DNA of 64,000 nucleotides from a candidate division WOR-3 bacterium (GTDB lineage: Bacteria; Hydrothermota; Tepidihabitantia; SM23-42), in contig CP070686.1 in the NCBI GenBank assembly GCA_020353055.1, forward strand, positions 1,056,625 to 1,120,624, given 5' to 3'. The notes below the pieces were generated by a model. That model was given only the letters and a program-made list of their open reading frames with translations. It did no database searches and was not told the DNA's origin. Below, in pieces: positions 7,959 through 63,058 of this stretch (its first letter is position 1; each line of letters starts with the position of its first letter). The position numbers and the translations under genes are program-made.

Positions 7959-9908
7959 ATGAAGATCGGTGTATATGTCTGCCACTGCGGCGGGAACATA
8001 TCCGAAGTCGTCGACATCAAGCAATTAACATCATTTGCCGAGAAGCAGTCAGACGTCGCAATCGTTCGAGACAATGCACATATGTGTTCTGATGTCGGCC
8101 GAAATCTCGTGCTGGAAGACATCAAAAAACACAATCTTGATAGAATTGTGGTGGCTGCCTGTTCGCCTCAATTTCATGGAAAGACTTTCATGGATATCGT
8201 AAAGAAGGCCGGCCTTTCACCCTATTTGTTCGAGATGGCTAATATCCGCGAACAGTGTTCTTGGCCACACTTTGACGAGCCCGAACTGGCGACCAGGAAG
8301 GCGAAAGACCTGGTGAACGTCGGAATTGCCAAGGTCAAACTTGACGAATCGTTGGAACGAAAAAGCATGCCCATCGGGAAGAGAGTACTCGTGGTTGGCG
8401 CCGGTATTGCAGGCATCCAGGCAGCGCTGGATCTCGGTGATGCCGGTTTCGAGGTTTTTCTCGTAGAGAAGAAACCCACGATCGGCGGGAAAATGGCACA
8501 ACTATCAAGGACGTTTCCAACCGAAGACTGTGCAGCATGTATCCTCTCTCCAAAGATGGCTGATGTTCCGAGCAATCCCAATATTACTTTATTCACTAAT
8601 TCAGAAGTGGAAAAAGTCTCTGGTTTTATCGGCAATTTTGAAGTAACAATTAACAAAAAACCCAGATACGTGAATGACAATTGTGTCTCCTGCGGTATCT
8701 GTGAAGAGAAATGTCCGGTGAAATTACCCAATGAATTCGAACAGGGGTTAACAACCCGCCGGGCGATCTACGTTCCGTTCGAATTTGCGGTACCGTACAA
8801 ATACGTCATCGACGAACCCAACTGCATCTATTTTCAGAAAGGCAAGTGCGGTAACTGTAAGAAGGTCTGCCCGCACGATGCGGTAGACTTCGAACAGAAA
8901 CCCGAAAAAATTGAAATCAAGGTAGACACCATAATCGTCGCGTCTGGCTATGATATCTTTGATGCCAGTGAGAAAAAAGTGTACGGCTTCGGCACGAACG
9001 AAAACGTCATCACCTCCCTGGAAATGGAACGCATGATCGTCCACGAAGCCGAAGGCCGCCCGACGAGAAAGATAGGCAATAGAATAGCATTCATCCAGTG
9101 TGTTGGTTCCCGGGACGAGCAAATCGGAAATGAATACTGCTCGAGGATCTGCTGCATGTATGCAACGAAGCTCTCGCAGCTCCTGAAGAGAACCGACCCG
9201 AAAAGGGATGTCTATGTCTTCTATACAGATCTACGTGCTTACGGTAAGGGTTTTGAAGAATATTACAAAAGAGCAGCACGGACCGGTGTCAAGTTCATTC
9301 GAGGAAGGGTCGCCGAATTGATCGAAGATCCCGAGACCAAAAAAGTGACCGTCAAAGTCGAAGATACCCTGGCACGCCAGATAATAGAATCAGAATTCGA
9401 CCTCGTCGTACTATCGGTGGGCATGCAGCCTGGCGAAGGAACTGGGAAAATCGCCGAGGTTCTGAGGATGACGCGAAGCCCCGGTGGCTTTCTCCAGGAG
9501 GCGCACCCGAAATTCAAACCGGTCGACACCCTCAACGACGGCGTGTTCATATGTGGCTGTGCGCAGGGACCCAAAGATATCCCTGACACCGTAGCACAGG
9601 CGAGTGCTGCTGCGGCGAGGGCGATAAGGCTGATGAATAAAGGTGAATATGAGGTCGAACCAATCACCGCGGTTGTCGACGAGGACCTCTGCAGTGGATG
9701 TGCAACCTGTGTAAGTGTCTGCCCGTACGATGCGGTGAAGACGGAAGTCAAGGATGACAAAAGGGTCGCCAAAGTGAACGAATTTCTTTGTCAAGGCTGT
9801 GGTTCCTGCTCGGCGGCTTGTCCTTCTGGAGCCTCACAGCAGCATTGGTTCATGAGTAGTCAATTAAAGGCCATGGTTGGCGCAGCATTAGGAGAGGAGG
9901 AAGAATGA
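7959..9908 (+). CDS. hdrA: Heterodisulfide reductase subunit A (HdrA), Cys form
   Basis: N-terminal VCHCGGNIS Cys cluster, FAD fold VLVVGAGIAGIQAALDL, FPTEDCAACILSPKM, several CxxCxxCxxxCP ferredoxin motifs. RBS AAGGAG. Confidence 0.85.
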   Translation: MKIGVYVCHCGGNISEVVDIKQLTSFAEKQSDVAIVRDNAHMCSDVGRNLVLEDIKKHNLDRIVVAACSPQFHGKTFMDIVKKAGLSPYLFEMANIREQCSWPHFDEPELATRKAKDLVNVGIAKVKLDESLERKSMPIGKRVLVVGAGIAGIQAALDLGDAGFEVFLVEKKPTIGGKMAQLSRTFPTEDCAACILSPKMADVPSNPNITLFTNSEVEKVSGFIGNFEVTINKKPRYVNDNCVSCGICEEKCPVKLPNEFEQGLTTRRAIYVPFEFAVPYKYVIDEPNCIYFQKGKCGNCKKVCPHDAVDFEQKPEKIEIKVDTIIVASGYDIFDASEKKVYGFGTNENVITSLEMERMIVHEAEGRPTRKIGNRIAFIQCVGSRDEQIGNEYCSRICCMYATKLSQLLKRTDPKRDVYVFYTDLRAYGKGFEEYYKRAARTGVKFIRGRVAELIEDPETKKVTVKVEDTLARQIIESEFDLVVLSVGMQPGEGTGKIAEVLRMTRSPGGFLQEAHPKFKPVDTLNDGVFICGCAQGPKDIPDTVAQASAAAARAIRLMNKGEYEVEPITAVVDEDLCSGCATCVSVCPYDAVKTEVKDDKRVAKVNEFLCQGCGSCSAACPSGASQQHWFMSSQLKAMVGAALGEEEE

Positions 9909-10342
9909 AAAGCAACCCCGACCCAAAGATAATCGCATTTTGCTGTAACTGGTGTTCCTATGCTGGAGCCGACGCTGCCGGAACCTCGAGGCTCCAAATG
10001 AAACCGCATTTCAGAATTGTTCGAGCCATGTGTTCAAGCCGGATCGACCCGGAATTGATCCTCGATGCGTTGAAGAAAGGTGCCTGGGGTGTATTAGTGG
10101 CCGGTTGTCATCCGGGCGACTGTCATTATGTAACCGGTAATTATCGTACCCACAAAAGAATCGCATTGCTCAAGGACCTGCTAAAAGAACTGGGCATAGC
10201 ACCACAAAGGGTAAGGCTGGAGTGGATCTCGGCAAACGAAGGTGGCAAGTTCCAAAAAGTCGTCAACGAATTCATCGATGAAATGTCCGTACTGGGGCCA
10301 CTTGAATTGAAAGGACAGCCAGCCGCCAAGGAGGCATCATGA
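9905..10342 (+). CDS. mvhD: Methyl-viologen-reducing hydrogenase delta subunit homolog (MvhD)
   Basis: FCCNWCSYAGAD ... GCHPGDCHY signature of the MvhD family. Translationally coupled to its neighbours by ATGA overlaps. Confidence 0.85.
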   Translation: MKSNPDPKIIAFCCNWCSYAGADAAGTSRLQMKPHFRIVRAMCSSRIDPELILDALKKGAWGVLVAGCHPGDCHYVTGNYRTHKRIALLKDLLKELGIAPQRVRLEWISANEGGKFQKVVNEFIDEMSVLGPLELKGQPAAKEAS

Positions 10343-18886: not shown

Positions 18887-21800
18887 ATGCCAAAAGGAGC
18901 ACTCGTCATTGGTGGAGGTGTGGCTGGGGTTCAGTCCGCATTAGATTTGGCGAACGCTGGTTTCAAGGTTTTCCTTGTCGAGCGTGGCCCATGTTTGGGC
19001 GGTCGAACATCCCAGATTCACAAAATCTTCACCTCGATGGACTGTACGGGCTGAATCCTCGGCCCTAAACTAATGGATGTCGGTCGACATCCGAATATTG
19101 AGATTTTTGCCAACAGCGAAGTTGTTGGCGTCGAGGGTGAAGCACCGGATTTCAAAGTGAAGGTCAGGCGCAAATCCACATTTGTCGATTGGGACAAATG
19201 TACTGGCTGCGGGGAGTGTCCGACTGTCTGTCCGGTCCACATCAAAGATGAGTTTCAATTAGACCTTTCAAAACGAGAGGCAATTTATCGTCGGTATCCC
19301 CAAGCAGTGCCTAATAAATTTCTCATCGACAAAAGGGGCTCGCCGCCGTGTCGATACTCCTGTCCTGCAGGAGTCAATGCTCAGGGATATATCGCGCTCA
19401 TTTCACAGGGCAAATATAAAGAAGCTTTGGAACTTGAACGGAGAGACAACCCGTTCCCGGCGGTCTGCGGACGTGTCTGCACTCACCCTTGTGAATCAGA
19501 CTGCAAGCGAAAAGACGTGGACGAACCGCTGGCCATTGCCCAGCTCAAACGTTTCATTTCGGACAGTGAGCAGGAACTCTCAGCACCGAGCCCTGAATTG
19601 AACAAGGAGAAGGTTGCCGTCGTGGGCGCCGGCCCTGCAGGCCTTTCTGCCGCATATTTCCTTGCCAAGAGAGGATACTGCCCGACCGTCTTTGAAGCCA
19701 CTGACCATCCAGGCGGGCTGCTGTACTGGGCAATACCGAGATTCAGATTGCCGGAGATCGCGCTGCAGCGCGATCTGGATTACATAAAGAGTTGGGGTGT
19801 TGAGATCAAGACGGGTACTGCATTAGGCAAAGATCTTAGTATCAAAGACCTTCAACAGGATTACAAGGCGATCTTCCTCGGACTTGGCGCGGCCAAAGAA
19901 AAAACAATGGGCATAGAAGGCGAAGATCTGCAGGGCGTCTCTCTGTGTGTTGAATTTCTAAATAAGGCGGTCCACGATCCTGAGACGCCGGTAGGCAAAA
20001 GGGTCGCCGTGGTCGGCGGCGGTAATTCTGCAATAGATGCGGTGCGTACCGTGTTGCGTCTTGGCGCCGAAGAAGCATTCGTCGTATATCGCCGCTCACG
20101 CCAGGAGATGCCCGCAAACGAAGAAGAGATCGTCGAGGCGGAGAAAGAGGGAATCAAGATCCATTACCTGACCAATCCAACAAAGATATTTGGAGAAGAT
20201 GGCAAAATCAAGGGCATGGAATGCATCAAGATGAAACTGGGCGAACCTGATTCTTCAGGCCGAAGGAAACCAATACCCATCGAAGGTTCTGAATTCACCA
20301 TTAATCTGGATATGGTGATAATGGCGATCGGTCAGGCAGCCGATGTTTCATTCCTCACCAAAGAAGAAAAATTCGAGTTAACGCGCTGGGGAACCTTTGC
20401 CGTGGATCCAGACACCCTGCAAACGAACATCCCTGGTATCTTTGCCGGTGGTGATGCGGTGACCGGACCAGCCACAGTTATCGAGGCGATTGCTGCGGGG
20501 AAAGAAGCCGCAGAATCGATCGACCGCTTCATCAGAGGTGTCGATCTGAAAGCAGACAGAAAAAAGAAAGAAGATCGCGTCAAAGATGAAGATATCGAAA
20601 TCCCGGAAGAATTACAAACTGAGAAGAGAACGACGATGCCATTGCTGGATCTGGAAAAAGCGAAGAAGAGTTTCGAAGAAGTCGCCCAAGGATTCTCCGA
20701 AGAACAGGCTAAAAAAGAATCAGATCGATGCCTGAGCTGTGCAGGCTGCTCAGAATGTCTCGAATGCGTGAAGGTATGCGAACCAAATGCCATCGTGCAC
20801 GACATGGTGGACGAATTTGTGGACCTGGACGTGGGCTCGATCATCGTGACCACCGGTGTCGACTATCTCGATCCTAAAGAGGCAAGTGAATACGGATACA
20901 AACGCTTCAAGAATATCTATACATCTTTTGAAATTGAACGGATCATGAGCGAAGACGGCCCGAGTGCCGGCGAACTTCCCCTTGGCAAACAATTAAAGGA
21001 GCCGTTACGTTTCGCATTCATCCAATGCGTTGGATCGCGTAATATGCGCCATGACATCAACTATTGCAGCCGCATTTGTTGTATGAACACGATAAAAGAC
21101 AGTCTGGTCCTTAAAGAACACTACCCTGACGCAAATATTGTCGTATTCTATATTGACATTAGAGCCTTTGGAAAGGGATTTGAAGAATTTTATAATCGGT
21201 CCCTCGAAAAGGGTGTGAAATATATCAAGGGTAAACCATCAAAGGTGATTGAGGATGGCTCGGGAAATTTGGTTATTCATTATGAAAACGAACAGGGACA
21301 CTCAGGCCAAATGATATTCGATGCCGTATGTCTCTCTTCAGCGCTGATTCCGTCAAGGGGCTGCAGAGAATTGGCCGGCGTGCTCGGCGTCGATATCGAC
21401 GATGATGGTTTTTACAAAAACATGGAACCGGCAACCGCACCGCTTGAGTCAACGAAAAAAGGCGTTCTGGTATGCGGTTGCGCAACAGGTCCTAAGGACA
21501 TTACCGATTCGATCGCCGAGGCGAGCGGTGCCGCGGTTAAGGCAGCATGTTTCTTGGAGGGCCATGAACTGCCGGTCGAGAAAAAGGAAATCGAACAAGT
21601 CGATGTGTCCGGTCCACCGAGAGTCGGTGTCTTTGTCTGCCATTGCGGCCCGAATATTTCAAAGGTTGTCGATGTCAAAGGCGTAGTTGAATACGCGAAG
21701 ACTTTACCGGATGTGGTATTCGCCGAGGATTATACGTTCGCCTGTTCTGAAACAGCCCAACACCAGATTCAAGAGAGGATAGCCGAACACAAACTGAACA

Positions 21801-23284
21801 GGGTTGTTGTCGCCGCCTGTACACCCAAGACGCATGAAATGAGCTTTCAAGATTCATTAACTGCCGTCGGTCTCAATCCGTACCTCTTCGATATCGCGAA
21901 CATCAGGAATCAATGCTCCTGGGTACATCAGAAAGAACCAGAAAAGGCAACCGAGAAAGCAAAAGAATTAGTCAGGATGTCGGTGGCGCGTGTTCGAAAA
22001 CTAGGTCCGCTCTTCATGAAAGAACTGTCGGTTAACCGCGATGTCGCTGTCATCGGCGCTGGTATCACCGGCCTGCGATGCGGTATTGATTTGCTCCAGC
22101 GGGGCTTTAAGGTCAAAATAATTGAGAAAAAAGAATTATCAGGCGGTCTGGTACGGCATCTCTCCAGCATCTATCCCAGCTTCCGGAAAGGAAGGAATAT
22201 TGTCGAGAAACTTCTCGATGAATTCACCAGTGCGGGCGGCGAACTTCTGACTTCAACAGAACTTGTGGATGTCACCGGTTATGTAGGTAACTTCCAGGTT
22301 AAGGTGAAGAGTGCAAAAGGAGAGACCGAATTCACGGTGGGCGCTATCGTTCTCGCCACGGGGTCAGAACTCTATGATCCAGGCGAGCGCTTTGGCTACG
22401 GTAAATATCCCAATGTCATCACCAACATGGAATTAGAACAAAAACTAATATCGGGTGAAATCGACGATATAAAATCCGTTGCCTTTTTCCAGTGCGTCGG
22501 CTCGAGGGGTGACGACGGTAATCCCGGATGTTCTCGCTATTGCTGTCAGGCAGCAATAAAAGAAGCCATTCATTTAAGAGAAAAAGGGATCGATGTTGCT
22601 ATTCTCAACCGCGGTGTCAGGGTTTATTCAAAAGGCGCCGAGCGGATGTACCGCAAGGCAAGGGAACTCGGCGTCCTATTCTTACCGTACGATGGAGAAC
22701 CAGAGATCACCGGAGCCGATAAGGCGGAAGCGGTCACGATCCCGTCACCAGATATCGATGCCGACATTACCATCCCGGTTAACCTCGTTGTGCTTTCGGT
22801 AGGCATGGTCCCGGCTGCCGATTCAGGACATCTTTCAGAGTTATTTAAGGTCCCGCGTGGGCCTGATAAGTTCTTCCTGGAACGTCACTCGAAATTCGGT
22901 CCGGTAGAAACAACGGTTGAGGGCGTGTTCTTATGCGGTTGTTGTCAGTTCCCGCAGGATATCGGAGATTCGATATCCCAGGCTTCGGCTGTGGCATCGA
23001 AGGTTGCCGCGCTGCTTAGCCGTGACAAGATCACGCTGGCACCCATAACATCTACGGTCATCGAAGAATACTGCCGTGGCTGTGGCAGGTGCGCTGAAGT
23101 ATGCGAATTCCGCGCGATAGAATTGGTTGAGAAGGAAAACGGCGTTTTCGTTGCGCAAGTTAACGAAGCGCTGTGCAAAGGTTGCGGGACGTGCGTCGCG
23201 GCATGCCCAACCGGTGCCATCGACCTCAAACATTTCAGAAGTGAACAGATCGAGGCCCAATTGGAGGCGCTGTTTGAAGGATAA
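18887..23284 (+). CDS. HdrL-like giant heterodisulfide-reductase-A fusion (HdrA half with a GltD/NfnB-like NAD(P)H domain insert, plus a second complete HdrA). It contains an in-frame UGA at 19052-19054 read as selenocysteine. The ORF track splits it into 18887-19054 and 19073-23284.
   Basis: ATG 18887 is 3 nt after the korC stop. N-term [21 protein letters not shown]...[23 protein letters not shown] is colinear with HdrA FPTEDCAACILSPKM (the TGA sits at the second Cys). Both pieces are in the same frame. GltD-like CxxC clusters and [32 protein letters not shown](P)H folds; second [11 protein letters not shown] HdrA module. Confidence 0.75.
19075..19092 (+). promoter_or_regulatory. Putative bacterial SECIS hairpin (GGATGTCGGTCGACATCC) 21 nt downstream of the UGA
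   Basis: Perfect inverted repeat. Identical sequence at the same distance from the second UGA (27093-27110). Absent from the Cys-form hdrA. Confidence 0.5.
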
Positions 23285-23346: not shown

Positions 23347-23853
23347 ATGAAACAATCGGTTAAGAAAATAAAAGAACGATCCGATCACTCAACGGTTCAA
23401 CGATCCAAGGAAACCTTCGAGCCTAAGATCGTTGCCTTCTGCTGCAACTGGTGCTCATACCCGGCAGCAGACGGTGCGGGCGTCTCCAGGCTGCAATACC
23501 CCACGAATATCAAGATCGTCAGGGTAATGTGCGGCGGCCGCGTGACGCCATCCTTCGTCCTGAAGGCTTTCGAGTTGGGTGCAGACGGCGTTCTGGTTGC
23601 CACCTGCCATTTCGAGGACTGCCACTACATGTTTGGAGCGCGGAAGGCTGCGGATGTGCACAAGGTAACTGAGAAACTCACCGAGATGCTCGGCATCGAG
23701 AAAGAACGTCTCAAACTCGACTGGATCTCATCGGCCGAAGCGTCGAAATTTGCCAGGGTTGCCCGGGAATTCACCGAAACGATTAGAAAACTCGGACCGT
23801 CTACTATAAAGAAGAAGTTGGACGCCCTCAACGAAAGCATTGAAGATGAATAG
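23347..23853 (+). CDS. mvhD: MvhD homolog, second copy
   Basis: FCCNWCSYPAADGAG ... TCHFEDCHY. Confidence 0.85.
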   Translation: MKQSVKKIKERSDHSTVQRSKETFEPKIVAFCCNWCSYPAADGAGVSRLQYPTNIKIVRVMCGGRVTPSFVLKAFELGADGVLVATCHFEDCHYMFGARKAADVHKVTEKLTEMLGIEKERLKLDWISSAEASKFARVAREFTETIRKLGPSTIKKKLDALNESIEDE

Positions 23854-26475: not shown

Positions 26476-28935
26476 ATGCCGCAGGATGATTTGAAAATCG
26501 GCGTTTTTATTTGCGAATGTGGTACAAACATCGCTGGCTCAGTTGATGTCGACAGTGTCGTTGCGAACGCCAAGAAGACAGGTAATGTCGTGTACAGCAC
26601 GAAGAGCCGCTACATGTGTTCGGAACCCGGTCAGGCAGAAATAAAGAAGGCAATAAAAGAGGAGAAACTCGACAGGGTAATCATCGCAGCGTGTTCACCG
26701 CGTATGCACGAACCAACCTTCAGGGAATGTGTCGCCTCGGTCGGCATGAATCCATATCTGGTTGATATGGCAAATATCCGGGAGCAATGCTCATGGGTTC
26801 ATATGGGTAACCGTGAAGCAGCAACAAAGAAAGCTAAAGATATCATGAAGGCATACGTTGCGCGAGCACGATACCTGCAACCGCAGGAGGAAAAGGAAAT
26901 CCCGGTCGAAAGAGCAACATTGATAATCGGCGGTGGGATTGCTGGGATGCAGTCGGCACTCGACCTGGCCGACGCAGGTTACCAGGTATACCTCGTCGAG
27001 AAAGAACCGTCACTGGGTGGTTTGATGTCCAAACTGGCTAAGACATATCCTACCATGGATTGCGCGATATGAATACTCGGCCCGAAGATGATGGATGTCG
27101 GTCGACATCCCAATATCAAGCTTCTGACCAACAGCAAAGTCGAGGCGATAAAAGGCTATGTCGGCAACTTCGACGTTAAGGTACTCAAGAAGACGCGCTA
27201 TGTAGACGAAACTCAGTGTACCGCATGTGGTGATTGCGCCGAAGTGTGCCCGGTTGTCGTTCCGGATGCTTACCAGCAGGGGCTATCATCAAGAAAAGCT
27301 ATTTATATTCCATTCCCCCAGGCCGTGCCATCGGCATCTCTGATCGATATGGAAAGTTGTCTGGGCACCAATCCAATTGCCTGCGGCAAGTGCGCCGACA
27401 AGTGTGACAAGAAATGTATTGACTACGATGCAAAAGACGAAACGATCGAATTCAAGGTCGGTACCGTTATCGTGGCAACGGGTATGGATGTATTTGACCC
27501 GGTGATTCTGGAAGAATACGGTTATACAAAACACGAAAATGTTGTTACGAGCATGGAGTTTGAAAGATTGCTGTCTGCTGGAGGACCCTCTGACGGACAC
27601 TTCATCCGTCCGACCGACCGGCAGAGGCCAAAGACCGTCGGTTTTGTCCAATGCGTTGGTTCGCGCTGCGAAAAGATCGGCAAACCCTACTGTAGCAATA
27701 TCTGCTGCATGAACACGATCAAGGACACGCTACTATTGAAAGACCACTATCCCGACATACAGGCAAAGGTTTTCTACATCGACATCAGGGCTTTTGGTAA
27801 GGGTTTCGAGGATCTGTTCAAACGAAGCAAAGAGGCGGGTGTACAATACATCAGAGGTATTCCCGGAGAGATCACCGAAGACCCCAAGTCCCGTAATCTG
27901 AAGGTTATGGTCGAAGATACTACTTCTAACAAAATAGAAGAACATGAATTTGACATGATGGTTCTCTCTGTCGGAGTGACACCAAGATTAGATATGCCCG
28001 AGGTTCAACAATTACTGACGCTGTCAAAAACGCCCGACGGTTTCTTTATGGAAGCACACCCGAAACTCAAACCAGTGGATGCACCGTCTACCGGCATTTA
28101 TTTTGCAGGCTGTGCCGAGGCGCCGAAGGATGTTAAGGATTCGGTGACCCAGGCGAGCGCAGCAGCGGCCAGAGCCGAAACACTACTATCAGCAGGAAAG
28201 GTCAAATTGGAAGCGATCACGTCCACGCTGGACACTGCTCTATGCCGGTATTGTGCAACGTGTTCCAGGGTATGTCCTTATGGAGCCTTCACCGTTGACC
28301 CGAAAAAGAAAACGATTTCCTACATCGATGCCCTTTGCAAAGGTTGCGGCACATGTGCCGCCGAGTGCCGGTTTGGCGCACTGACAATGAAACACTTCAC
28401 CGATGAACAGATTGTAACTCAAATCGACGCCCATCTCGCCGAAGATCCTGGGGAAAAAGTAATCGTCTTTGCCTGTAACTGGTGTTCTTATGCAGGTGCC
28501 GATACCTGCGGTGGCGCACGGCTTCAGTATCCACCTAACCAGCGTTTGATCAGAACAATGTGTAGTGGCAGGGTAGATGAAAAATTCGTGCTGCATGCGT
28601 TCAGGAAAGGTGCCCCAATGGTTGTCGTATCCGGATGCCATTACGTCGACTGCCACTATATCGATGCGAACCGCTGGACCCAGAAGAGAGTCGAAAAACT
28701 TTGGGATAAATTCGAAAAATGGGGAATTAGACCCGAGAGATTGCTGCTCGAATGGATAAGTGCTGCAGAGGGACAACGGTTTCAAAAAACCATGCAGGAT
28801 ATCGAAGAACTGAGAAAGAAAGTAACAAAAGAAGAGATCGAACAAACAGTAAAGATCCTGACCGAAGAAGAAGAAAAAGATAAGGCAAAAGCTAAGAAGA
28901 AACAAGCTGACAGTCCAACAAAAAAGAAATCGTGA
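26476..28935 (+). CDS. hdrA: HdrA-MvhD fusion protein with an in-frame UGA (27070-27072) read as selenocysteine. The ORF track splits it into 26452-27072 and 27088-28935.
   Basis: GGGGGTGA RBS then ATG 26476. [51 protein letters not shown] (UGA at the Cys position of CAACIL). C-terminal FACNWCSYAGAD...GCHYVDCHY MvhD domain and a Lys-rich tail. Confidence 0.8.
27093..27110 (+). promoter_or_regulatory. Putative SECIS hairpin (GGATGTCGGTCGACATCC) 20 nt downstream of the UGA
   Basis: Identical to the hairpin after the HdrL UGA. Confidence 0.5.
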
Positions 28936-49973: not shown

Positions 49974-51084
49974 GTGAACAAGCCGTCCGACACGAATGTC
50001 GTAACCATCGACGAGATAAAGAAACTCAAGACTAGATTCGATGGTCTGAAGGAGCATCTTTGACCTTCAGAAACTCGAACAAGAACTAAAGAAGCTACAG
50101 AAAAGAACCTCCAATCCGGAATTCTGGGCGAATAAAACCGAAGCCCAGAAGATAATGTCTGAAATAAACGAAAAACAATTCTGGCTTCAATCAGTAGAGA
50201 CAATAGGTTCTGACATCGAACTCCTTGCTGGTTTGATAGAATTGGAGGAAATAGACGACAAAATGCTTGCTGAAGCGACCCACGAAGCAAAGAAGGTCGA
50301 GGGGAAGTTGAGGGATATCGAGTTGAAATTACTACTGGGTAAAGAGGATGACATGAAGAACTGCATCCTGACGATTCACCCGGGTGCCGGAGGTACAGAA
50401 TCCTGCGATTGGGCTGAGATGTTAATGCGTATGTATATGCGATGGTTTCAGATGAAAGACTTCACCCACCGGATGCTTAATTTCCTGCCAGGGGATGTTG
50501 CCGGCATAAAGGATGCTACTATTGAAGTAGTGGGTAAATATGCGTACGGCTTACTGAAAGCAGAGGTGGGTATTCATCGGTTAGTACGAATATCACCCTT
50601 CGATTCGAACGCGCGGCGTCATACGTCCTTTGCCTCGGTATTTGTCTACCCTGAAGTCGAAGATGTCAGCGTTGAAATCAATGATGATGACCTGCGAATA
50701 GACACATACCGGGCGGGCGGCCACGGCGGACAGAATGTGAACAAAGTCTCTTCCGCAGTCAGGATCACACACATCCCGACTGGAATCACGGTTCAGTGCC
50801 AAAATGAACGCTCACAATTTCAAAATAAAAACAATGCGATGAAAATATTACGGTCTCGGCTTTACGATTACTATCAAAAACAAGAAGATGAGAAGCTTGC
50901 AAAATTAAACAAGCAGAAAACAGAGATCGCCTGGGGACATCAAATACGTTCCTATGTATTTCACCCGTACAAACTCGTCAAGGACCATCGTACAGACTAC
51001 GAAACATCCCAGGCCGACAAGGTCATGGATGGCGAAATAGATGATTTCATACATGCCTATCTCAGCATGAAGGCAGAAATCTAG
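49974..51084 (+). CDS. prfB: Peptide chain release factor 2, translated via programmed +1 frameshift at CTT-TGA-C (50058-50064). Frame 0 covers 49974-50060 and frame +1 covers 50062-51084.
   Basis: GAAGGAG RBS then GTG 49974. Short frame-0 ORF ending ...GLKEHL-TGA with an upstream SD-like AAGGAG. The downstream frame encodes SPF and GGQ motifs. Confidence 0.85.
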
Positions 51085-59587: not shown

Positions 59588-61318
59588 TTACCTTACTACA
59601 ACAAACTTCTCCACCTGCTGACTAGATTCGGTTTGCAGCACGGCAAAGTAAGTGCCGTTGGTAAGATATTCTATAGGCAATTTCATTATGAATCTTCCCT
59701 CGCCACAATGACCGTCCAAAACATCCTCAACTAATCGTCCGGTCACATCGTATATGCGAAGCGAGACATGTGTTGCAGAAGATGTCTTGAATCTGACTAT
59801 GCCGTCATTTGCGACGATCGTCGGCATTATTCCAAATTCCATGCCATCAATGGACAATCTACCCGCCTCCTGAACTGATGTTGGCCAGTCCAGTAGCCAA
59901 CCGAGCGTCTCGCTCTCAAAGTATAATTCACCCGCTTCAGTCGCTTGATCCTCCAGTACCCAGATCGAGTAGTTTCTGCTTGTCATATTTCCGGTGTTTT
60001 CCATCAAATCGGCCGTCTCCGTTGCATTCCAGTCAAACCATCCGATTTCTCCGGTATTAACGGTTGAAAGCGGACCAGTAATACGCCAGGTATTACCGCC
60101 GTCCCATGAGTACACGCCCTGAATGTGCGCACCATCCAACACAGCCCAGTTGACAGTATTACCAATATAGCAATAGGATTTACAGCTTGCAAGGACTCTG
60201 CCGAGCACAGGGTCGTAAGACAATGAGGGATATTGGCCAGGCCAGCAGTAGAAAAGCGTGTCGCCAACCCACGTCGAGTCAAAGCCTATCGAATCCTGAT
60301 GCCAAATATCCCATGTCCAGTTACCTGGTGACCCGGTGCCCTTGACGATATGCGGACCGCCTGTACCGCCGTAGCCTAGATCGTTATGAATAACCCACGG
60401 TTCATTGTCGACAACAATACAATCGAATTCAGACCACCAATACTGGGAATATGTATTGGCCGGGAAGACAGTGATAGGCGCTTCCTCGCTCCAGGTGTAA
60501 CCGCCGTCGGTTGATTCAGTATAGTACGGATAGAGAGTGGAATCAGTACCGCTGAAATTGTAGTACTCAAGATAGGTATAGAATAGGTACTCATCTGTTC
60601 CTTCAGCCAGAGCACCGGCTGAACCGCCTGCGCTGATGCATAACATGGGTATGGTATCACTCCATCCACATCCCGCATCATAAGATACCCAGCAGTATGC
60701 CCATCCATTGCCGTTGGCAAGATAACTCCAGGCCGTCAGCACGAGATGCGCGGGGTCGTCCCGCATCACTACCATGCTCGGCTCCCATGGATAGGTAGCC
60801 GGTGCCTGTCCATTAGGGGGAATTATCGGCACCGTAAACGATGGCGCCGACGGCAGGTTCTCTTCCCTCATAACGTTCACGCTGACATCACTGTAACCCT
60901 GCGTACAGGATTGGAAGGCAAACCAGAGCTCACCGGTATTAGCATGAAAATTCGGAGTGTAAGCAAGATCGCTGTAGATTCTTCGGCTGTCCCCTGTAAA
61001 CGGCCCATATGTATTCCACGAGACACCACCATTGATTGAATAGGCGATCTTCACGAGCATAGGATTATATGGGTCACCGCTCGGCGCACCGTAGATCACG
61101 GCAATCGCATCACCGCCGCCAGACACCGCAATGCTCTTGCCCTGGCTGCCGAGAATCGCCCTGATGTTGCCCACAGAATCGATAATTACGCGGTCGAAGA
61201 ATGTCTCTCTAGACCGTAATACACTCGGCGCGCCATCATGAACCGCATCATCAATATTGAGCGGGGTATGGGCAAAGACGAATGCATAACATATACAGAA
61301 TACAATCAAGGTCTTCAT
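59588..61318 (-). CDS. Secreted BNR/Asp-box repeat protein with a T9SS-type C-terminal sorting domain (paralog 1)
   Basis: Signal peptide; S-x-D-G-G-x-T-W Asp-boxes (STDGGYTWS, SWDGGNTWR, SINGGVSWN). C-terminus ...LTNGTYFAVLQTESSQQVEKFVVVR. Confidence 0.6.
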   Translation of the reverse strand: MKTLIVFCICYAFVFAHTPLNIDDAVHDGAPSVLRSRETFFDRVIIDSVGNIRAILGSQGKSIAVSGGGDAIAVIYGAPSGDPYNPMLVKIAYSINGGVSWNTYGPFTGDSRRIYSDLAYTPNFHANTGELWFAFQSCTQGYSDVSVNVMREENLPSAPSFTVPIIPPNGQAPATYPWEPSMVVMRDDPAHLVLTAWSYLANGNGWAYCWVSYDAGCGWSDTIPMLCISAGGSAGALAEGTDEYLFYTYLEYYNFSGTDSTLYPYYTESTDGGYTWSEEAPITVFPANTYSQYWWSEFDCIVVDNEPWVIHNDLGYGGTGGPHIVKGTGSPGNWTWDIWHQDSIGFDSTWVGDTLFYCWPGQYPSLSYDPVLGRVLASCKSYCYIGNTVNWAVLDGAHIQGVYSWDGGNTWRITGPLSTVNTGEIGWFDWNATETADLMENTGNMTSRNYSIWVLEDQATEAGELYFESETLGWLLDWPTSVQEAGRLSIDGMEFGIMPTIVANDGIVRFKTSSATHVSLRIYDVTGRLVEDVLDGHCGEGRFIMKLPIEYLTNGTYFAVLQTESSQQVEKFVVVR

Positions 61319-61339: not shown

Positions 61340-63058
61340 TTATCTTACTACAATAAACTTTTCCACCTGCTGACCTGATTCGGTTTGTAGCACGGCAAAG
61401 TAAGTGCCGTTCGTGAGACGGTCTGTGTGAAGGTCTATTCTGTGAGTTCCCTTATGAACCGGTCCGCTATAAACATCATCGACTAACCGACCACTGACGT
61501 CATATACCCGAAGCGAAATATCTGCGGCAGCCCGTACATTGAATGTCATTCTGCATGCGTTCATTACGATTGAAGGGGTAATCCGAAATTCAAGATCCGT
61601 AATCGAGCTATTCCCTGCTTCTTCAACACCTGGATCCCACCAGTAGACCATACCCTGCTCGAAGTACAACACACAGGACGTGTCAGAATGTACCCATATC
61701 GAATATACGTACGGGTGATTGCCGTTTGCGCCCAGGAGGTCAGCGGTCTCGGTCGCCTTCCAGTCATCCCATGCTATCTCACCGGCATTCGGTGCAGATA
61801 GAGGAAAAAGATATATACCCGAAATCCAATAACTGCCACCATCATAGCTGCAGATCCCATGAATATGAGGTCCGTCATAGGCTGCCCAGGTAAGGGTATT
61901 ACCGACATACATATAAGCTTTGTAACTCACTAGTACCGCGCCGATCGACGGTTCGTAGGATAATGATGGCTGCCCACCTGGCCGAACATAAAAGAGCGTA
62001 TCCCCGCGCCAGATAGAATCAAAACCGATTGCACCCGCATCCCACATTGTCCAGGTCCAGTTGCCTGGTGAACCGGTCGCCTTTGCCACGTGGGGCCCGC
62101 CCGTACCGCCGATGCCAATATCGTTGAATACGACCCACGGCTCATTATCCATGACCAGGCAGTCGAACTCGTGCCACATGTACTGAGAGGATGTGTTGGC
62201 CGGAAAGACCGAGATCGGTGTCTCTGCGCTCCATGTATAGCCGCCGTCGGTCGATTCCATGTAATGTGGATACGGGGTAGAATCACTACCGTTGAAAGTG
62301 TAGTAATCCACATATGCATAGAAAATATGACCACCGGTTCCCGCTGATATCGCACCGGGTGCGCCGCCAGCATTAATGTACGCCATCGGTATCGTATCGG
62401 TCCAGCTATAACCGCCATCAGTGGAGATCCAGCAATATGCCCACTCATTGCCGTTCACAAGATAACTCCACGCCGTAGCAACGAGGTAAGTCGGGTCATC
62501 AATGGCCACGACAATACTCGGCTCCCAGGGATAGATGGCAGGAGCAGAAGCATTCGTAGGCACGATCGGTACCGAGAACGAAGGCGCCGACGGCAGATTC
62601 TCCTCCATCATTACGTTGATCTGGCCATCTGTGTAGCCCAGTGTGTTCTCCTGGAAGCAGAAGAACAATTCACCAGGGTTCGCGTCGAAATCAGGCGTTG
62701 CCGCGATATCATTGTATATCCTGCGCGACGCACCGGTGAATGGCCCGTATGTTGTCCAGGATGAACCACCGTTCAATGAATAGGCGACCTTTGCCAACAT
62801 TGAATTGCTCGGATCGCCACTTGGCATGCCATAGAAAACGGCAACTGCTTCACCGCCGCCAGACACCGCAATGCTCTTGCCCTGGCTGCCAAGAACTGAT
62901 CGGACATCGCCGAGTTGAGCGATAATTACACGGTCGGAGCAAATATCCTCCGAGTATCCTCTATTGAATACACGATTATAGACAACATCACCCACACTGA
63001 CTGTGGTACGGGCAAAAATGTATGCATAACATATACACAATACGAGTAAGGCTTTCAT
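61340..63058 (-). CDS. Secreted BNR/Asp-box repeat protein with a T9SS-type C-terminal domain (paralog 2)
   Basis: Colinear with paralog 1, including identical nucleotide stretches. Confidence 0.6.
   Translation of the reverse strand: MKALLVLCICYAYIFARTTVSVGDVVYNRVFNRGYSEDICSDRVIIAQLGDVRSVLGSQGKSIAVSGGGEAVAVFYGMPSGDPSNSMLAKVAYSLNGGSSWTTYGPFTGASRRIYNDIAATPDFDANPGELFFCFQENTLGYTDGQINVMMEENLPSAPSFSVPIVPTNASAPAIYPWEPSIVVAIDDPTYLVATAWSYLVNGNEWAYCWISTDGGYSWTDTIPMAYINAGGAPGAISAGTGGHIFYAYVDYYTFNGSDSTPYPHYMESTDGGYTWSAETPISVFPANTSSQYMWHEFDCLVMDNEPWVVFNDIGIGGTGGPHVAKATGSPGNWTWTMWDAGAIGFDSIWRGDTLFYVRPGGQPSLSYEPSIGAVLVSYKAYMYVGNTLTWAAYDGPHIHGICSYDGGSYWISGIYLFPLSAPNAGEIAWDDWKATETADLLGANGNHPYVYSIWVHSDTSCVLYFEQGMVYWWDPGVEEAGNSSITDLEFRITPSIVMNACRMTFNVRAAADISLRVYDVSGRLVDDVYSGPVHKGTHRIDLHTDRLTNGTYFAVLQTESGQQVEKFIVVR

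Follow-up and report, generated by a model that had tools for sequence, protein, structure and literature searches.

Candidate bacterial SECIS hairpins downstream of the in-frame UGA codons of two hdr genes

Two hdr genes in the 64-kb stretch of DNA analysed here (the window) each carry an in-frame UGA codon, and the same short hairpin follows each of these codons within the coding sequence. The locus raises the question of whether this hairpin is a bacterial SECIS element (bSECIS) that allows UGA to be read as selenocysteine (Sec), or whether it is a by-product of the encoded peptide, an element with some other role, or a structure lying by chance behind genuine stop codons. The two genes, the hairpin itself, and the Sec- and Cys-containing homologs from other genomes each bear on the answer.

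Two hdr genes with an in-frame UGA

The first gene (18887..23284, + strand) encodes an HdrL-like protein of 1465 amino acids if its UGA is read as Sec (residue 56), and the frame is continuous across this single TGA. According to Pfam and NCBIfam, the protein comprises an HdrA-type flavoprotein into which a GltD/NfnB-like NAD(P)H module is inserted, together with a further HdrA-like module, an arrangement known as the ‘HdrL’ architecture. NCBIfam models for NAD(P)-binding and glutamate synthase small-subunit proteins match residues 146–650; the match to the HdrA2 model (NCBIfam NF040770), split by the insert, reaches 1001 bits in four stretches and stays under the cutoff of 1100. The UGA (19052..19054, + strand) lies within the motif MDCTG-U-ILGPK and corresponds to the second Cys of the DCxxC-ILxPK motif in homologs and in the Cys-form paralog described below.

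The second gene (26476..28935, + strand) encodes an HdrA–MvhD fusion of 819 amino acids with Sec at residue 199 and an FlpD/MvhD domain at its C-terminus. This protein matches the HdrA2 model NF040770 over its full length (1163.7 bits, cutoff 1100) and PDB entry 5odc_A, heterodisulfide reductase subunit A, with E = 2.4e-231, the Sec position corresponding to the Cys of DCSICIL. Its UGA (27070..27072, + strand), within MDCAI-U-ILGPK, therefore stands at a conserved HdrA Cys. Neighboring genes include mvhD, hdrB/C/D-like genes, and genes for 2-oxoacid:ferredoxin oxidoreductase. A Cys-form hdrA paralog (7959..9908, + strand), with its Cys codon at 8538–8540, is available within the window for comparison.

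A scan of the window for in-frame TGA codons with long open reading frames on both sides revealed no other convincing selenoprotein gene. ARAGORN detected neither a tRNA nor a tRNA-Sec in the 64-kb window, and a Pfam search of approximately 50 open reading frames identified no SelA, SelB, or SelD domain.

Sequence, fold, and consensus fit of the hairpin

The claim that an identical hairpin follows both UGA codons is borne out: the 18-mer GGATGTCGGTCGACATCC occurs as two exact copies in the whole window, at 19075–19092 and 27093–27110, each behind an in-frame TGA. No third site is present in the window even when up to three mismatches are allowed, and shuffled sequences lead to an expectation of 0.04 matches. 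The distance from UGA to stem is 20 nt in both genes, and the codon register is identical, reading U-I-L-G-P-K-(L/M)-M-D-V-G-R-H-P around both hairpins; of the spacings given in the original prediction, the 20 nt for the HdrA–MvhD gene stands, and the 21 nt for the HdrL-like gene is corrected to 20. Within the hairpin, all five degenerate codons (D, V, G, R, and H) are identical between the two Sec paralogs of the window, whereas in the flanks, codon pairs that encode the same amino acid agree in only 9 of 24 cases.

The structural details differ from those first proposed. Rather than a perfect 18-nt palindrome, GGATGTCGGTCGACATCC has the form 8+2+8, differing from its own reverse complement at two central bases; as a consequence, only a 7-bp stem closed by a GGUC tetraloop can fold, in place of the 8-bp stem, or 6-bp stem with a GGUCG-containing loop, that had been suggested. 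RNAfold predicts this hairpin (GGAUGUC/GACAUCC around GGUC) in every context tried, in agreement with the expectation of a stable stem in the mRNA. In copy 1 (+ strand), the stem spans 19075–19081 and 19086–19092 with the loop at 19082–19085, and reaches 8 bp when a closing U·G pair is included; the codons (AU)G GAU GUC GGU CGA CAU CC encode (M)DVGRHP. In copy 2 (+ strand), a stem of 7 bp spans 27093–27099 and 27104–27110, with the loop at 27100–27103. The bare hairpins have energies of −10.3 kcal/mol (copy 1) and −9.4 kcal/mol (copy 2), and the RNAfold centroid of the hairpin alone is −10.6 kcal/mol.

Windows of 60 nt starting from each UGA gave folding z-scores of −0.46 and −1.47, neither of which is significant; the signal is that of a local hairpin together with comparative data, not one of overall folding stability. 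For single sequences, RNAfold adds pairs that extend the stem downward, but RNAalifold applied to 74 sequences retains the upper stem of 6–7 bp only, and we therefore claim no conserved lower stem. A search of the whole window against Rfam at gathering score gave no match, and nothing matched in the surroundings of the two hairpins even at E ≤ 10.

The bSECIS consensus model of Zhang and Gladyshev, as stated in PMC13188914, specifies a loop of 3–9 nt on a stem of 4–16 bp, a G at one or both of the first two positions of the loop (as a rule G and then G or U), a UGA-to-loop distance of 16–37 nt, and a minimum free energy of −7.5 kcal/mol or lower (PMC13188914, Fig. 2). Comparison with this model places both hairpins within its published constraints: each has the 4-nt loop GGUC, 7–8 bp, and 27 nt between UGA and loop, with energies of −10.3 and −9.4 kcal/mol.

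Sec and Cys forms of HdrA in other genomes

When species-representative genomes were scanned for DCxxU-ILxPK, at least 120 loci were recovered, about 115 of those listed being real Sec-HdrA genes. Among the matches listed, the hosts belong to Desulfobacterota, Chloroflexota, Planctomycetota, Bacillota, KSB1, Calditrichota, and other phyla, and nearly all bacterial Sec-HdrA genes carry a hairpin in the same place. Many of the recovered loci hold the identical 18-mer, including several of the nearest homologs recovered, which among the matches listed are only about 65–68% identical in DNA sequence to the hdr genes of the window. Three Asgard archaeal Sec-HdrA genes (L032, L095, and L102) have no hairpin after the UGA, as expected, since archaeal SECIS elements sit in the 3′ UTR.

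The hairpin varies together with the peptide. Genes encoding DVGRH carry GGAUGUC-GGUC-GACAUCC (or GGCAUCC as the 3′ arm), those encoding DAGRH carry GGAUGCC-GGUC-GGCAUCC, and those encoding EAGRS carry GAGGCC-GGUC-GGUCUC; the VDAARH class has UGACGC-GGC-GCGUCA, and the LVEVGRH class has CUGGUCG-AGGU-CGGCCGG, positioned 5 nt further upstream. In an alignment of 74 sequences that share the GGUC register, pairing holds for 96.1% of stem cells, compared with 24–56% after a shift of the 3′ partner by 1–3 columns. Pair 27–38 is UA in 59 of these sequences and GC in 13, and pair 29–36 is CG in 43, UA in 22, and UG in 8. In the latter pair, replacement of Val (GUC) by Ala (GCC) goes together with a silent change in Arg (CGA to CGG): in Sec forms, Ala (GCC) always occurs with Arg CGG, and Val (GUC) occurs with CGA or CGG.

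One alternative traces the hairpin to the encoded peptide. In MDVGRHP, the first two positions of the codons are self-complementary, and the hairpin could be a by-product of this property and of codon bias, with no function as RNA. In favor of such an origin, (D/E)(V/A)GRHP is a general motif of HdrA, common to Sec and Cys forms and conserved in the latter too, and in Cys forms the fixed codon positions alone already give 3–6 of the 7 stem pairs. The Cys-form hdrA of the window, used as a control in the original prediction, does lack the palindrome, but it encodes ADVPSNP at this place rather than MDVGRHP; a comparison with a gene encoding another peptide is unable to separate a constraint on the RNA from one on the protein sequence.

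We therefore compared Sec and Cys forms that encode the same peptide. A metagenome scan for C-ILxPK-xx-(D/E)(V/A)GR supplied 116 real Cys-form HdrA genes; the Sec and Cys sets were drawn from separate collections (species representatives and metagenomes, respectively), and the samples are not phylogenetically independent. For the peptide D(V/A)GRH, the full 7-bp stem is present in 53/60 Sec forms (among the matches listed) versus 2/40 Cys forms (p = 5e-18), and the GGTC loop in 59/60 Sec forms (again among the matches listed) versus 4/40 Cys forms (p = 2e-21). Third-codon-position entropy at D, V/A, G, and H is 0–0.12 bits in the Sec set and 0.95–1.8 bits in the Cys set, so that these synonymous sites are frozen in Sec forms only. 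Codons flanking the hairpin are equally variable in the two sets, indicating that the Sec set has been diverging for long enough to vary and that the constraint is confined to the hairpin. The covariation of the Ala/Val second base with the silent third base of Arg is likewise found in Sec forms only. In the LVEVGRH class, the shifted hairpin is present in 23/24 Sec forms (among the matches listed) and in 0/18 Cys forms; here a hairpin is retained despite a different register and sequence.

The bSECIS model separates the two sets as well. A strict test requiring an ungapped stem was passed by 102/118 Sec forms (among the matches listed) and by 8/116 Cys forms (p = 1.6e-38). The Sec forms that failed include the three Asgard archaeal genes and the VDAARH class, whose hairpin attains no more than −6.6 kcal/mol when its bulged extension is left out. 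The same-peptide control largely refutes an origin of the hairpin in peptide sequence and codon bias, which we regard as very improbable. The claim that the hairpin tracks the UGA and not the protein is right, although it is this control, and not a single Cys paralog, that establishes it. The palindrome in Cys-form homologs, which had been put forward as a counter-indication, is carried by only 2–3 of 40; these few cases fit occasional remnants of Sec-to-Cys conversion (PMC1794560).

An equally small probability attaches to a role unrelated to recoding, whether as a DNA palindrome bound by a regulator, an attenuator, a ribosome pause site, or an mRNA stability element. Any stable hairpin could pause ribosomes, and the 18-mer does contain the DNA palindrome GTCGAC. 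Across genomes, however, the presence of the hairpin goes with the UGA and not with membership of the gene family, its loop and spacing agree with the SECIS consensus, and no T-run follows it. The conserved G·U pairs, which correspond to C·A mismatches on the other strand, favor sense-strand RNA over duplex DNA as the conserved object. Least probable of all is that the hairpin is irrelevant to decoding because the TGAs are true stops (in split genes, in pseudogenes, or through sequencing errors) or because UGA is a standard sense codon: gene callers would split both genes, and an ATG lies right behind each TGA region (19073 and 27088), but the TGA falls exactly at the conserved Cys of DCxxC in two paralogs and more than 100 homologs, the N-terminal fragments hold the FAD-binding GxGxxG motif and cannot work alone, and UGA is otherwise a stop codon in the source organism, where TGA ends many open reading frames of the window and prfB (RF2), with its CUU UGA C frameshift site, is encoded there too.

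Taken with the position, fold, and consensus fit observed at both sites, the compensatory changes and the Sec-specific synonymous constraint, including the near-absence of the hairpin from Cys forms with the same peptide, support the proposal of a candidate bacterial SECIS. We conclude that each hairpin is very probably a bSECIS inside the coding region. By analogy with the mechanism in E. coli and Moorella, SelB would bind the hairpin and Sec would be inserted in the source organism. The 7-bp stem would display the GGUC tetraloop 27 nt downstream of the UGA in the mRNA, and SelB carrying Sec-tRNA(Sec) would bind the G-U of this apical loop, so tethering the SelB–GTP–Sec-tRNA(Sec) complex at the mRNA entrance of the ribosome. 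When the UGA reaches the A site, Sec would be inserted in competition with RF2, after which the ribosome would melt the hairpin and translate DVGRH.

Relation to known elements and implications

The fdhA SECIS of Moorella thermoacetica, from a different gene, shares with the window hairpins a GGUC tetraloop on a regular stem; its crystal structure with the SelB winged-helix domains reportedly shows recognition through the G-U dinucleotide, and binding of SelB to the hairpins described here would be analogous. The loop of E. coli fdhF is also GGUC. Like the window hairpins, the fdhF SECIS lies directly 3′ of the UGA within the open reading frame and has a loop with G and U. It consists of a 17-nt mini-hairpin 11 nt from the UGA, needs a bulged U17, and presents loop bases G23 and U24 to SelB (PMC8659212); the window stem, in contrast, is 20 nt from the UGA and fully paired, with no bulged U. 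These differences in spacing and bulge fall inside the general bSECIS model and concern specifics of E. coli. Archaeal SECIS elements serve Sec-HdrA too, but are located in the 3′ UTR and have a different structure, with a GAA_A bulge (PMC13188914).

Sec-HdrA has been recognized since the mid-2000s as a selenoprotein family of bacteria and archaea, for which bSECISearch has predicted SECIS elements (PMC1794560, PMC1976440). The elements described in Deltaproteobacteria and Firmicutes (Zhang et al. 2006, PMC1794560) and in Olavius symbionts (PMC1976440) belong to the same family, with Sec at the same CxxU position and the SECIS just downstream of the UGA, and the Sec-HdrA loci recovered here include lineages of those elements. 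Sec-containing HdrL1 and HdrL3 have been reported in Desulfobacterium autotrophicum HRM2 (PMC2702500), a paper in which the word SECIS does not appear. As in the window, these are large Sec-containing fusions of HdrA and glutamate synthase type followed by mvhD and hdr genes (PMC2702500); the organism is a different one, and the likeness to HdrL1/HdrL3 is one of architecture and not of orthology to one particular HdrL. Sec-HdrA, Sec-HdrL, and their SECIS elements are thus in the literature already, and the element in the window is almost certainly of a known type rather than a new one. The current understanding of Sec decoding is unchanged.

The analysis offers a worked example in which the synonymous sites of Sec and Cys orthologs encoding the same peptide separate an RNA signal within a coding region from constraint on the protein, and it shows that a single selenoprotein family contains hairpins in two registers. 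It is also conceivable, if rather doubtful, that the HdrA peptide (D/E)(V/A)GRH is pre-adapted to become a SECIS, because 3–6 of the 7 pairs in the stem already follow from fixed first and second codon positions and the codons for Gly and Arg (GGN CGN) furnish the GG-C of the loop. If so, few silent changes would make a Cys-form gene able to recode UGA. Such pre-adaptation could explain the repeated gain of Sec by HdrA in many phyla, the existence of two registers (GGUC loop at +27 and AGGU loop at +22) on one peptide, and the complete SECIS-like hairpins in occasional Cys forms.

The finding is useful chiefly for annotation: each of the two genes should be annotated as one selenoprotein that continues across the UGA, with lengths of 1465 and 819 amino acids, and the pair should not be split into four fragments. 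The uncultured source organism, which may conceivably be a carrier of Sec-HdrL outside the Desulfobacterota, in the FCB group or a related phylum, should accordingly be scored as a predicted selenocysteine user.

UGA is a normal stop codon in this organism

In prfB, the gene for release factor 2 (RF2), the ORF occupies positions 50155–51084, with an upstream frame from 49971. The gene carries a programmed +1 frameshift site of the classic type, CUU UGA C (50058–50064), with a GGAG resembling a Shine-Dalgarno sequence ahead of it. Because the N-terminus is encoded in the other frame, the Pfam match to PCRF does not begin until profile position 38. The frameshift site shows that UGA is a normal stop read by RF2 in this organism.

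Selenocysteine and module content of the window

MvhD/FrhD is itself frequently a selenoprotein family. However, all three MvhD/FlpD modules of the window (9905–10342, 23347–23853, and the C-terminus of the HdrA-MvhD fusion, 26476–28935) are Cys forms (CCNWCSY or ACNWCSY), and selenocysteine is confined to HdrA-type subunits. From about residue 1045, the HdrL-like protein (18887–23284) has a second flavin module of HdrA type (GAGITG...), in which the DCxxC/U motif is wholly absent. The closest hdrA relatives among the matches listed belong to Krumholzibacteriota, Glassbacteria and KSB1 MAGs. Elsewhere in the window, two large ORFs on the minus strand (59588–61318 and 61340–63058) weakly match Por_Secre_tail, the C-terminal sorting domain of the T9SS, with scores of 26.8 and 29.1 bits (cutoff 27). 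Taken with the placement of the hdrA relatives, these matches hint at an origin of the window in the FCB group or a related lineage, and not in Desulfobacterota.

Hairpin registers in Sec-HdrA genes

Sec-HdrA genes among the matches listed (L001–L120) display two or more hairpin registers on peptides that are almost identical, as illustrated by L016:605–664 versus L012:1135–1194. The first register, found in the D/E-V/A-G-R-H/S classes, has a GGUC loop 27 nt past the UGA; the second, found in the LVEVGRH class, has an AGGU loop 22 nt past the UGA. Minor classes among these matches possess triloops GGC, GGU or GUU. In the HdrL-like gene, the UGA itself lies within an additional predicted 7-bp hairpin, GGGCUGA-AUCC-UCGGCCC (19048–19065), the 71-nt context of which folds at −23.1 kcal/mol (z = −3.3). 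This UGA-containing hairpin is specific to the HdrL-like gene, with no counterpart in the HdrA-MvhD copy.

Hairpins in archaeal-labelled and Cys-form loci

A Sec-HdrA gene with a bacterial-type in-ORF hairpin, of the same type as that of the Desulfobacterota LVEVGRH class, was identified on a contig of a MAG labelled Candidatus Bathyarchaeota (L007:4705–4764). This locus probably stems either from contamination at the binning stage or from horizontal acquisition of a gene from bacteria. No such in-ORF hairpin was present in three Asgard loci (L032, L095 and L102). Turning to Cys forms, a few metagenome HdrA genes (L152, L156 and L221) have an entire SECIS-like hairpin whose loop is GGUC, that of L156 being GAUGCC-GGUC-GGCAUC. 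SECIS remnants after Sec-to-Cys conversion are known for other families (PMC1794560); possibly, the hairpins in these three Cys-form genes are likewise remnants of recent Sec-to-Cys conversion.
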